Source: Escherichia coli O127:H6 str. E2348/69
Lineage (GTDB): Bacteria; Pseudomonadota; Gammaproteobacteria; Enterobacterales; Enterobacteriaceae
Reading direction: 5' to 3' (one strand)
DNA length: 64,000 bases
Assembly: GCF_000026545.1 (NCBI RefSeq)
Contig: NC_011601.1
Positions 15,448 to 15,988 of this stretch are shown here, in pieces (positions within the stretch are counted from its first letter, which is position 1; the number at the start of each line of letters is the position of its first letter). Under the pieces are notes generated by a model. The model searched no databases. It had not been told where the DNA came from and was given only the letters and a program-made list of their open reading frames with translations. Made by a program: the position numbers and the translations under genes.

Positions 15448-15988
15448 TTTCTGCTTCGTTAATGTGTCATAACTGGTCATCAAGTTACGATAATCAGGAA
15501 TGTGGTTAGAGAACAACGTCGCCAGTCCTTCAATATCATTACGCCAGTCGCGATGCAGCTCGCACGCCACGCCGAACCATGTCATCAATTGCGCACCAGC
15601 TTGCGACATGCGATCCCATGCCGAATGCCGGGTAATTTCATTAAAGGTCCCTGACGCATCAGTCACGACAAAGACGTCAAACCCTTCTTCAATGGCTGAA
15701 AGCGCCGGGAATGCCACGCAAACTTCGGTTACCACACCGGCAATAATTAACTGTTTTTTACCTGTCGCTTTGACAGCTTTTACAAAATCTTCGTTATCCC
15801 AGGCGTTAATATTTCCCGGGCGAGCAATGTAAGGTGCATCGGGGAATTGTGCTTTCAGTTCTGGAACTAATGGGCCGTTAGGACCGGTTTCAAAACTGGT
15901 GGTAAGAATAGTTGGTAAGTTGAAATACTTAGCCAGGTCACCCAGCGCCAGCATCATTTTTATCAAGACGAACATACGGTTTGGTCAT
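15445..15988 (-). pseudogene. ycaC: Isochorismatase-family hydrolase YcaC, disrupted by a frameshifting deletion near the 5' end
   Basis: SD plus ATG at 15988 encodes MTKPYVRLDKNDA, then the frame hits TGA after 16 codons; the rest of YcaC (LALGDLAKYFNLPTILTTS...TLTKQK) continues in another frame (ORF 15445..15975). Confidence 0.75.

Follow-up and report, generated by a model that had tools for sequence, protein, structure and literature searches.

The window analysed here is a stretch of 64,000 nt from the chromosome of Escherichia coli O127:H6 strain E2348/69, in which ycaC lies on the minus strand at positions 15445–15988, flanked by ycaD and dmsC. This copy measures 544 nt, as against 627 nt for intact alleles. 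Its position is conserved: the same ycaD-ycaC-dmsC arrangement is present in E10 and in a K-12 derivative, where the intact ycaC encodes a protein of 208 aa. A GC-rich palindromic hairpin of terminator-like appearance, located by hairpin prediction at 15418–15439 (no strand assigned), separates the convergent ycaC and dmsC genes. RefSeq names the E2348/69 gene 'isochorismate family cysteine hydrolase YcaC' and annotates it as a pseudogene of 544 nt that is 'frameshifted', a flag that ycaC carries in three E2348/69-derived records. The pseudogene status of ycaC is already known from this annotation; the size of the lesion, the TGCTG repeat at its edges and its distribution within a clade are refinements. 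No published discussion of the E2348/69 ycaC pseudogene was found in the literature searched.

The start region of the gene is unchanged. Read on the minus strand, a Shine-Dalgarno-like AAGGAG (16000–15995) precedes the ycaC ATG (15988–15986) by 6 nt, and this region is invariant in the alignment with intact alleles. The frame opened by this ATG encodes 16 codons, MTKPYVRLDKNDAGAG, and ends at a TGA (15940–15938), so that the residual 5′ frame spans 15938–15988, as established from the sequence, the list of open reading frames and a check of the junction. The window copy thus offers no uninterrupted reading of about 208 codons beginning at the native start. YcaC residues 41–208 (LALGDLAKYFNLPTILTTS...TLTKQK) are encoded in a frame other than that of the ATG at 15988. 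They lie within a mechanically predicted ORF of 176 aa on the same strand (15445–15975; MFVLIKMMLALGDL...KQK), whose start is the shifted frame of ycaC codons 5–13 and which from residue 9 onwards corresponds to YcaC 41–208. A previous sequence-only reading of this DNA had described the Shine-Dalgarno sequence, the ATG, the stop after 16 codons and the continuation of YcaC in a different frame, and our reading of the minus strand agrees with it on all of these.

We mapped the lesion by MAFFT alignment combined with an exhaustive search of all possible placements, using the alleles of E10 and of the K-12 derivative as references. Compared with the intact 627-nt alleles, the window copy lacks exactly 83 bp (27 codons plus 2 nt), in a single deletion corresponding to ycaC nt 36–118 or, equivalently, to any placement up to 41–123. 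Removing nt 36–118 from the E10 allele yields the window copy save for 2 substitutions; over the retained 544 nt there are thus 2 substitutions relative to E10, and 5 relative to K-12. The K-12 translation begins MTKPYVRLDKNDAAVLLVDHQAGLLSLVRDIEPDKFKNNVLALGDL..., exactly as given in the sequence-only reading, whose estimate of 27 codons plus 1–2 nt is made precise by the alignment to reference alleles that it had proposed. Both the alignment and the RefSeq flag bear out its description of a pseudogene with a frameshifting deletion after codon 13. At the genome scale, a 751-bp region around ycaC aligns without a break and at 100% identity with E2348/69 (NZ_CP059840.2), and nearly all other complete E. 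coli genomes match it as two pieces spanning about 834 bp.

In intact alleles the pentamer TGCTG occurs twice with a spacing of 83 bp, its copies beginning at ycaC nt 36 and 119 in the contexts ...AATGA TGCTG CCG... and ...AACG TGCTG GCG.... In the window, a single TGCTG remains at the deletion junction (15949–15953, minus strand), as located by the alignment and the placement search. Since the deletion can be placed equivalently in six ways, with TGCTG at both edges of the intact segment, the microhomology is 5 bp long. The short repeat noticed in the sequence-only reading is therefore real, its length being 5 bp (TGCTG) and not the 4 bp (GCTG) given there. Junction homology of at least 5 bp is produced by just 0.6% of all possible deletions of 20–200 bp in a 900-bp region, making it unlikely that the repeat sits at the junction by coincidence. 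The alignment revealed neither filler DNA nor IS sequence at the junction, and this clean junction rules out the involvement of an IS or other mobile element. DNA folding detected no unusual hairpin potential in the deleted DNA relative to shuffled sequences (z = 0.68); a hairpin-assisted deletion was rejected, as the intact segment does not fold more stably than the shuffles do. We also rejected an insertion in the other genomes instead of a deletion here: the segment is near-universal, lies within the protein of known structure 1YAC and encodes Asp19.

These features suggest how the allele may have arisen. In the clade ancestor of E2348/69, ycaC nt 36–118 were lost between the two TGCTG pentamers, one of which was left behind. 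The most likely route, to which the 5-bp repeat points, would be replication slippage or misalignment between short direct repeats. Deletions of such size between short direct repeats form a classic RecA-independent class in E. coli. The ycaC lesion resembles this class in having TGCTG flanks in the ancestral allele, in keeping one copy and in being shorter than 100 bp; no palindrome or hairpin was detected between the TGCTG copies, and slippage is here proposed from sequence. A real deletion formed by another route, either break repair through annealing of microhomologies or an event in which the 5 bp coincide by chance, is unlikely but retains some weight. A 5-bp repeat is a short one, no hairpin in the deleted DNA could bring the two copies together, and the same 0.6% of arbitrary deletions would have equal microhomology by chance; the clean junction, free of filler and IS sequence, speaks against such a route. 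As to slippage and microhomology-guided break repair, both would leave an identical footprint, which sequence cannot separate. We consider replication slippage the likeliest origin of the deletion.

The deletion removes YcaC residues 14–40 (AVLLVDHQAGLLSLVRDIEPDKFKNNV) and shifts the frame. Asp19 lies inside the deleted codons, and the codons for Arg84 and Cys118 survive solely in the shifted frame downstream, leaving the active-site trio Asp19/Arg84/Cys118 incomplete. In the structure of Pseudomonas aeruginosa YcaC, Asp19 is completely conserved and placed to take a proton from the nucleophile Cys118, and it is salt-bridged to Arg84; E. coli and P. aeruginosa YcaC share an almost fully conserved active site (PMC4519933). 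The match between K-12 YcaC and PDB 1YAC spans the whole protein. Intact YcaC covers positions 2–173 of 175 in the Isochorismatase profile PF00857 and positions 2–200 of 201 in the YcaC family model NF041461. The remnant ORF matches PF00857 at positions 75–173 of 175 only (77 bits) and NF041461 at positions 37–200 of 201 only, with a score of 336.4 bits that exceeds the cut-off of 310; the deletion thus takes away roughly the first 35 positions of this model. The score above the cut-off indicates very little decay of the downstream coding sequence, which is compatible with a recent event. The window copy shares with the YcaC family (1YAC, NF041461) the ycaD-ycaC-dmsC locus and, in its downstream frame, Cys118 and Arg84; it departs from the family in lacking 83 bp, in having a frame that breaks off after codon 13 and in having lost Asp19. 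On these grounds we class it as a remnant of a YcaC family member and not as a functional member. Translation from the intact Shine-Dalgarno sequence and ATG would stop after 16 codons, and with residues 14–40 gone, including Asp19 as the proposed activator of the Cys118 nucleophile, a functional YcaC enzyme is not expected from E2348/69.

A truncated YcaC product may nevertheless be made in this strain. One could imagine a functional, N-terminally shortened YcaC of 169–176 aa starting at an internal ATG (15975, 15957 or 15954), where ribosomes might reinitiate once the 16-codon leader has been translated. The downstream frame runs uninterrupted for 176 codons, its product scores above the YcaC equivalog cut-off with Cys118 and Arg84 in place, and gene callers report the remnant as a protein in many assemblies. 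The leader stop falls 11–14 nt 3′ of the ATGs at 15957 and 15954, a distance at which termination-reinitiation is conceivable. However, reading the sequence upstream of each of the three internal ATGs revealed no recognisable purine-rich Shine-Dalgarno sequence. Such a product would moreover be devoid of residues 14–40, which comprise AVLLVDHQ, the start of the Isochorismatase domain, in addition to Asp19, whereas the whole length of intact YcaC is conserved between E. coli and P. aeruginosa; RefSeq, too, calls the gene a pseudogene. A shortened enzyme therefore appears very improbable to us. The sequence-only reading had itself raised the idea that YcaC of this lineage might start at the internal Met; a protein so initiated lacks Asp19 and some 35 positions at the beginning of the family model, which argues against a natural start at that position.

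We then determined how widely the deletion allele is distributed. A junction-centred probe of 41 bp was used, which has at most 23 contiguous bases in common with intact alleles, so that megablast cannot seed on the latter at this point. The probe matched 3 of 5,426 complete E. coli genomes: E2348/69, 'E2348/69 variety 2' and the engineered derivative EPEC1. The deleted 83 bp were found in 5,419 of the 5,426, which implies that presence of the segment is ancestral and its absence derived. By exact-sequence look-up, the deletion-specific 176-aa product was found on 80 contigs and the 169-aa version on 181. The latter is not specific to the deletion, as it is also called, starting at the codon-40 GTG, in genomes whose ycaC has a different N-terminal lesion; carriers were therefore counted from the 176-aa ORF and from direct checks of the junction only, matches to the 169-aa version being left out. 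In this way the identical junction was recognized, on contig DNA, in eight further assemblies (L006–L011, L014 and L017). Six are NCBI assemblies: GCA_900448265.1 and GCA_900450255.1 (NCTC-type), GCA_053257775.1, GCA_000691085.1, GCA_000249055.2 and GCA_000249155.2. The two others are metagenomes, one an ENA assembly and one from JGI.

These data bear on the trivial explanation that the lesion is an assembly or sequencing error and that the true genome carries an intact ycaC. Single records can in principle carry indel errors, but we found nothing in favour of an error here, and a loss of 83 bp is unlike an error of the homopolymer type. The same junction is present in three complete assemblies derived from E2348/69, which are different records, and in the eight others, which include NCTC genomes, draft isolates and two metagenomes. 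With one and the same junction in 11 assemblies, an assembly artefact is effectively refuted, and we attach practically no weight to it. In none of the independent assemblies does a single frame of about 208 codons reappear.

The eight further carriers differ from the window by 0–3 SNPs per 6.5 kb, and the nearest genome examined with an intact allele, E10, differs from it by about 1.4%. The occurrence of the same junction in such close relatives indicates that the deletion is clade-wide. The accession range of the carriers is compatible with the DEC1 strains that PMC3897749 lists. Named sources of matches to the remnant ORF include E. coli 2362-75 and accessions of the EHU series. The carriers in the DEC1 range are presumably O55:H6 EPEC1 strains. 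From this distribution, we regard the ycaC deletion as marking a tight, EPEC1-like clade and not as the laboratory mutation of one stock. The lesion described in the sequence-only reading is thus real, and it is an allele of a tight clade, not one private to a single strain.

Taken together, the observations point to a ycaC gene killed in the clade ancestor by an 83-bp deletion flanked by TGCTG, most likely through slippage, with no functional YcaC expected; we estimate the probability of this interpretation at about 0.93. No evidence contradicting pseudogenisation was found in the sequence, annotation or distribution data.

A second lesion is located two genes away. The dmsA gene (11472–13916, plus strand) is interrupted by a TAG at window positions 13236–13238, giving ORFs of 588 and 222 codons, and is labelled an 'internal stop' pseudogene in the RefSeq annotation of E2348/69. 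Six carriers of the ycaC deletion (L006, L007, L008, L010, L011 and L017) have a C at 13236, restoring CAG (Gln), and dmsA is called at its full 814 residues in L014. Carrier L009 is identical to the window, dmsA TAG included. Since most carriers of the ycaC deletion are free of the dmsA TAG, the deletion predates the dmsA mutation. The nonsense mutation is, by these comparisons, specific to E2348/69 and the identical L009. Unless the TAG is suppressed, E2348/69 should be devoid of DMSO reductase A. In GCA_000249155.2 (L014:4602–5027), dmsB is called at 141 aa instead of 205, and the comparison with the window shows a 1-nt gap; either an indel error of the draft assembly or a further lesion could account for it.

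The situation recalls the gene decay seen in pathogenic E. coli and Shigella, with the clade-restricted loss of a conserved gene of unknown specificity accompanied by a second, later lesion two genes away (dmsA CAG>TAG). Nothing in the present data points to an adaptive loss of ycaC, and almost all other E. coli keep an intact copy. The ycaC lesion is an ordinary, clade-specific pseudogene produced by a short-repeat deletion. That the loss of YcaC was selected in the EPEC1-like clade instead of being neutral decay, that ycaC is more widely and recurrently inactivated in E. coli (in view of the Q21*, L24* and −1 frameshift alleles described below) because the hydrolase is costly under some condition, or that the remnant of 169–176 aa is expressed with an altered role, are speculations to which we give only a slim chance.

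E2348/69 is the laboratory prototype of EPEC, and a natural ycaC null is relevant to work on YcaC or on metabolism in this background. Use of the strain as a metabolic wild type should also take account of the nonsense mutation in dmsA, separated from ycaC by dmsB and dmsC. The 83-bp difference in size offers a handy PCR marker for the clade. The deletion reveals nothing new about the substrate of YcaC and has little significance beyond bookkeeping.

Other lesions were encountered in the N-terminal region of ycaC. The 169-aa product is also called in genes of intact length in which codon 21 is TAG (Q21*; L012, L015, L018 and L019). This allele is present in 1 of the 5,426 complete genomes, that of strain PCP06171 from seawater. 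Two further lesions are L24* (L020) and a −1 frameshift near codon 25 (L016). On several independent occasions ycaC has thus been knocked out in unrelated E. coli assemblies and metagenomes, by rare alleles, in a sample that was chosen for N-terminal truncation; such repeated knock-outs do not imply selection for loss. An apparent frameshift in an ENA metagenome scaffold (L013, about 2940–2955) is a scaffolding gap, with Ns in the N-terminal region of ycaC. Three of the 5,426 complete genomes gave no match at all to the ycaC region, and seven matches to it fell on records classed as plasmids. Finally, in one metagenome contig (L015:3703–4815), an IS element encoding a DDE_Tnp_1 transposase is inserted between ycaC and dmsC.
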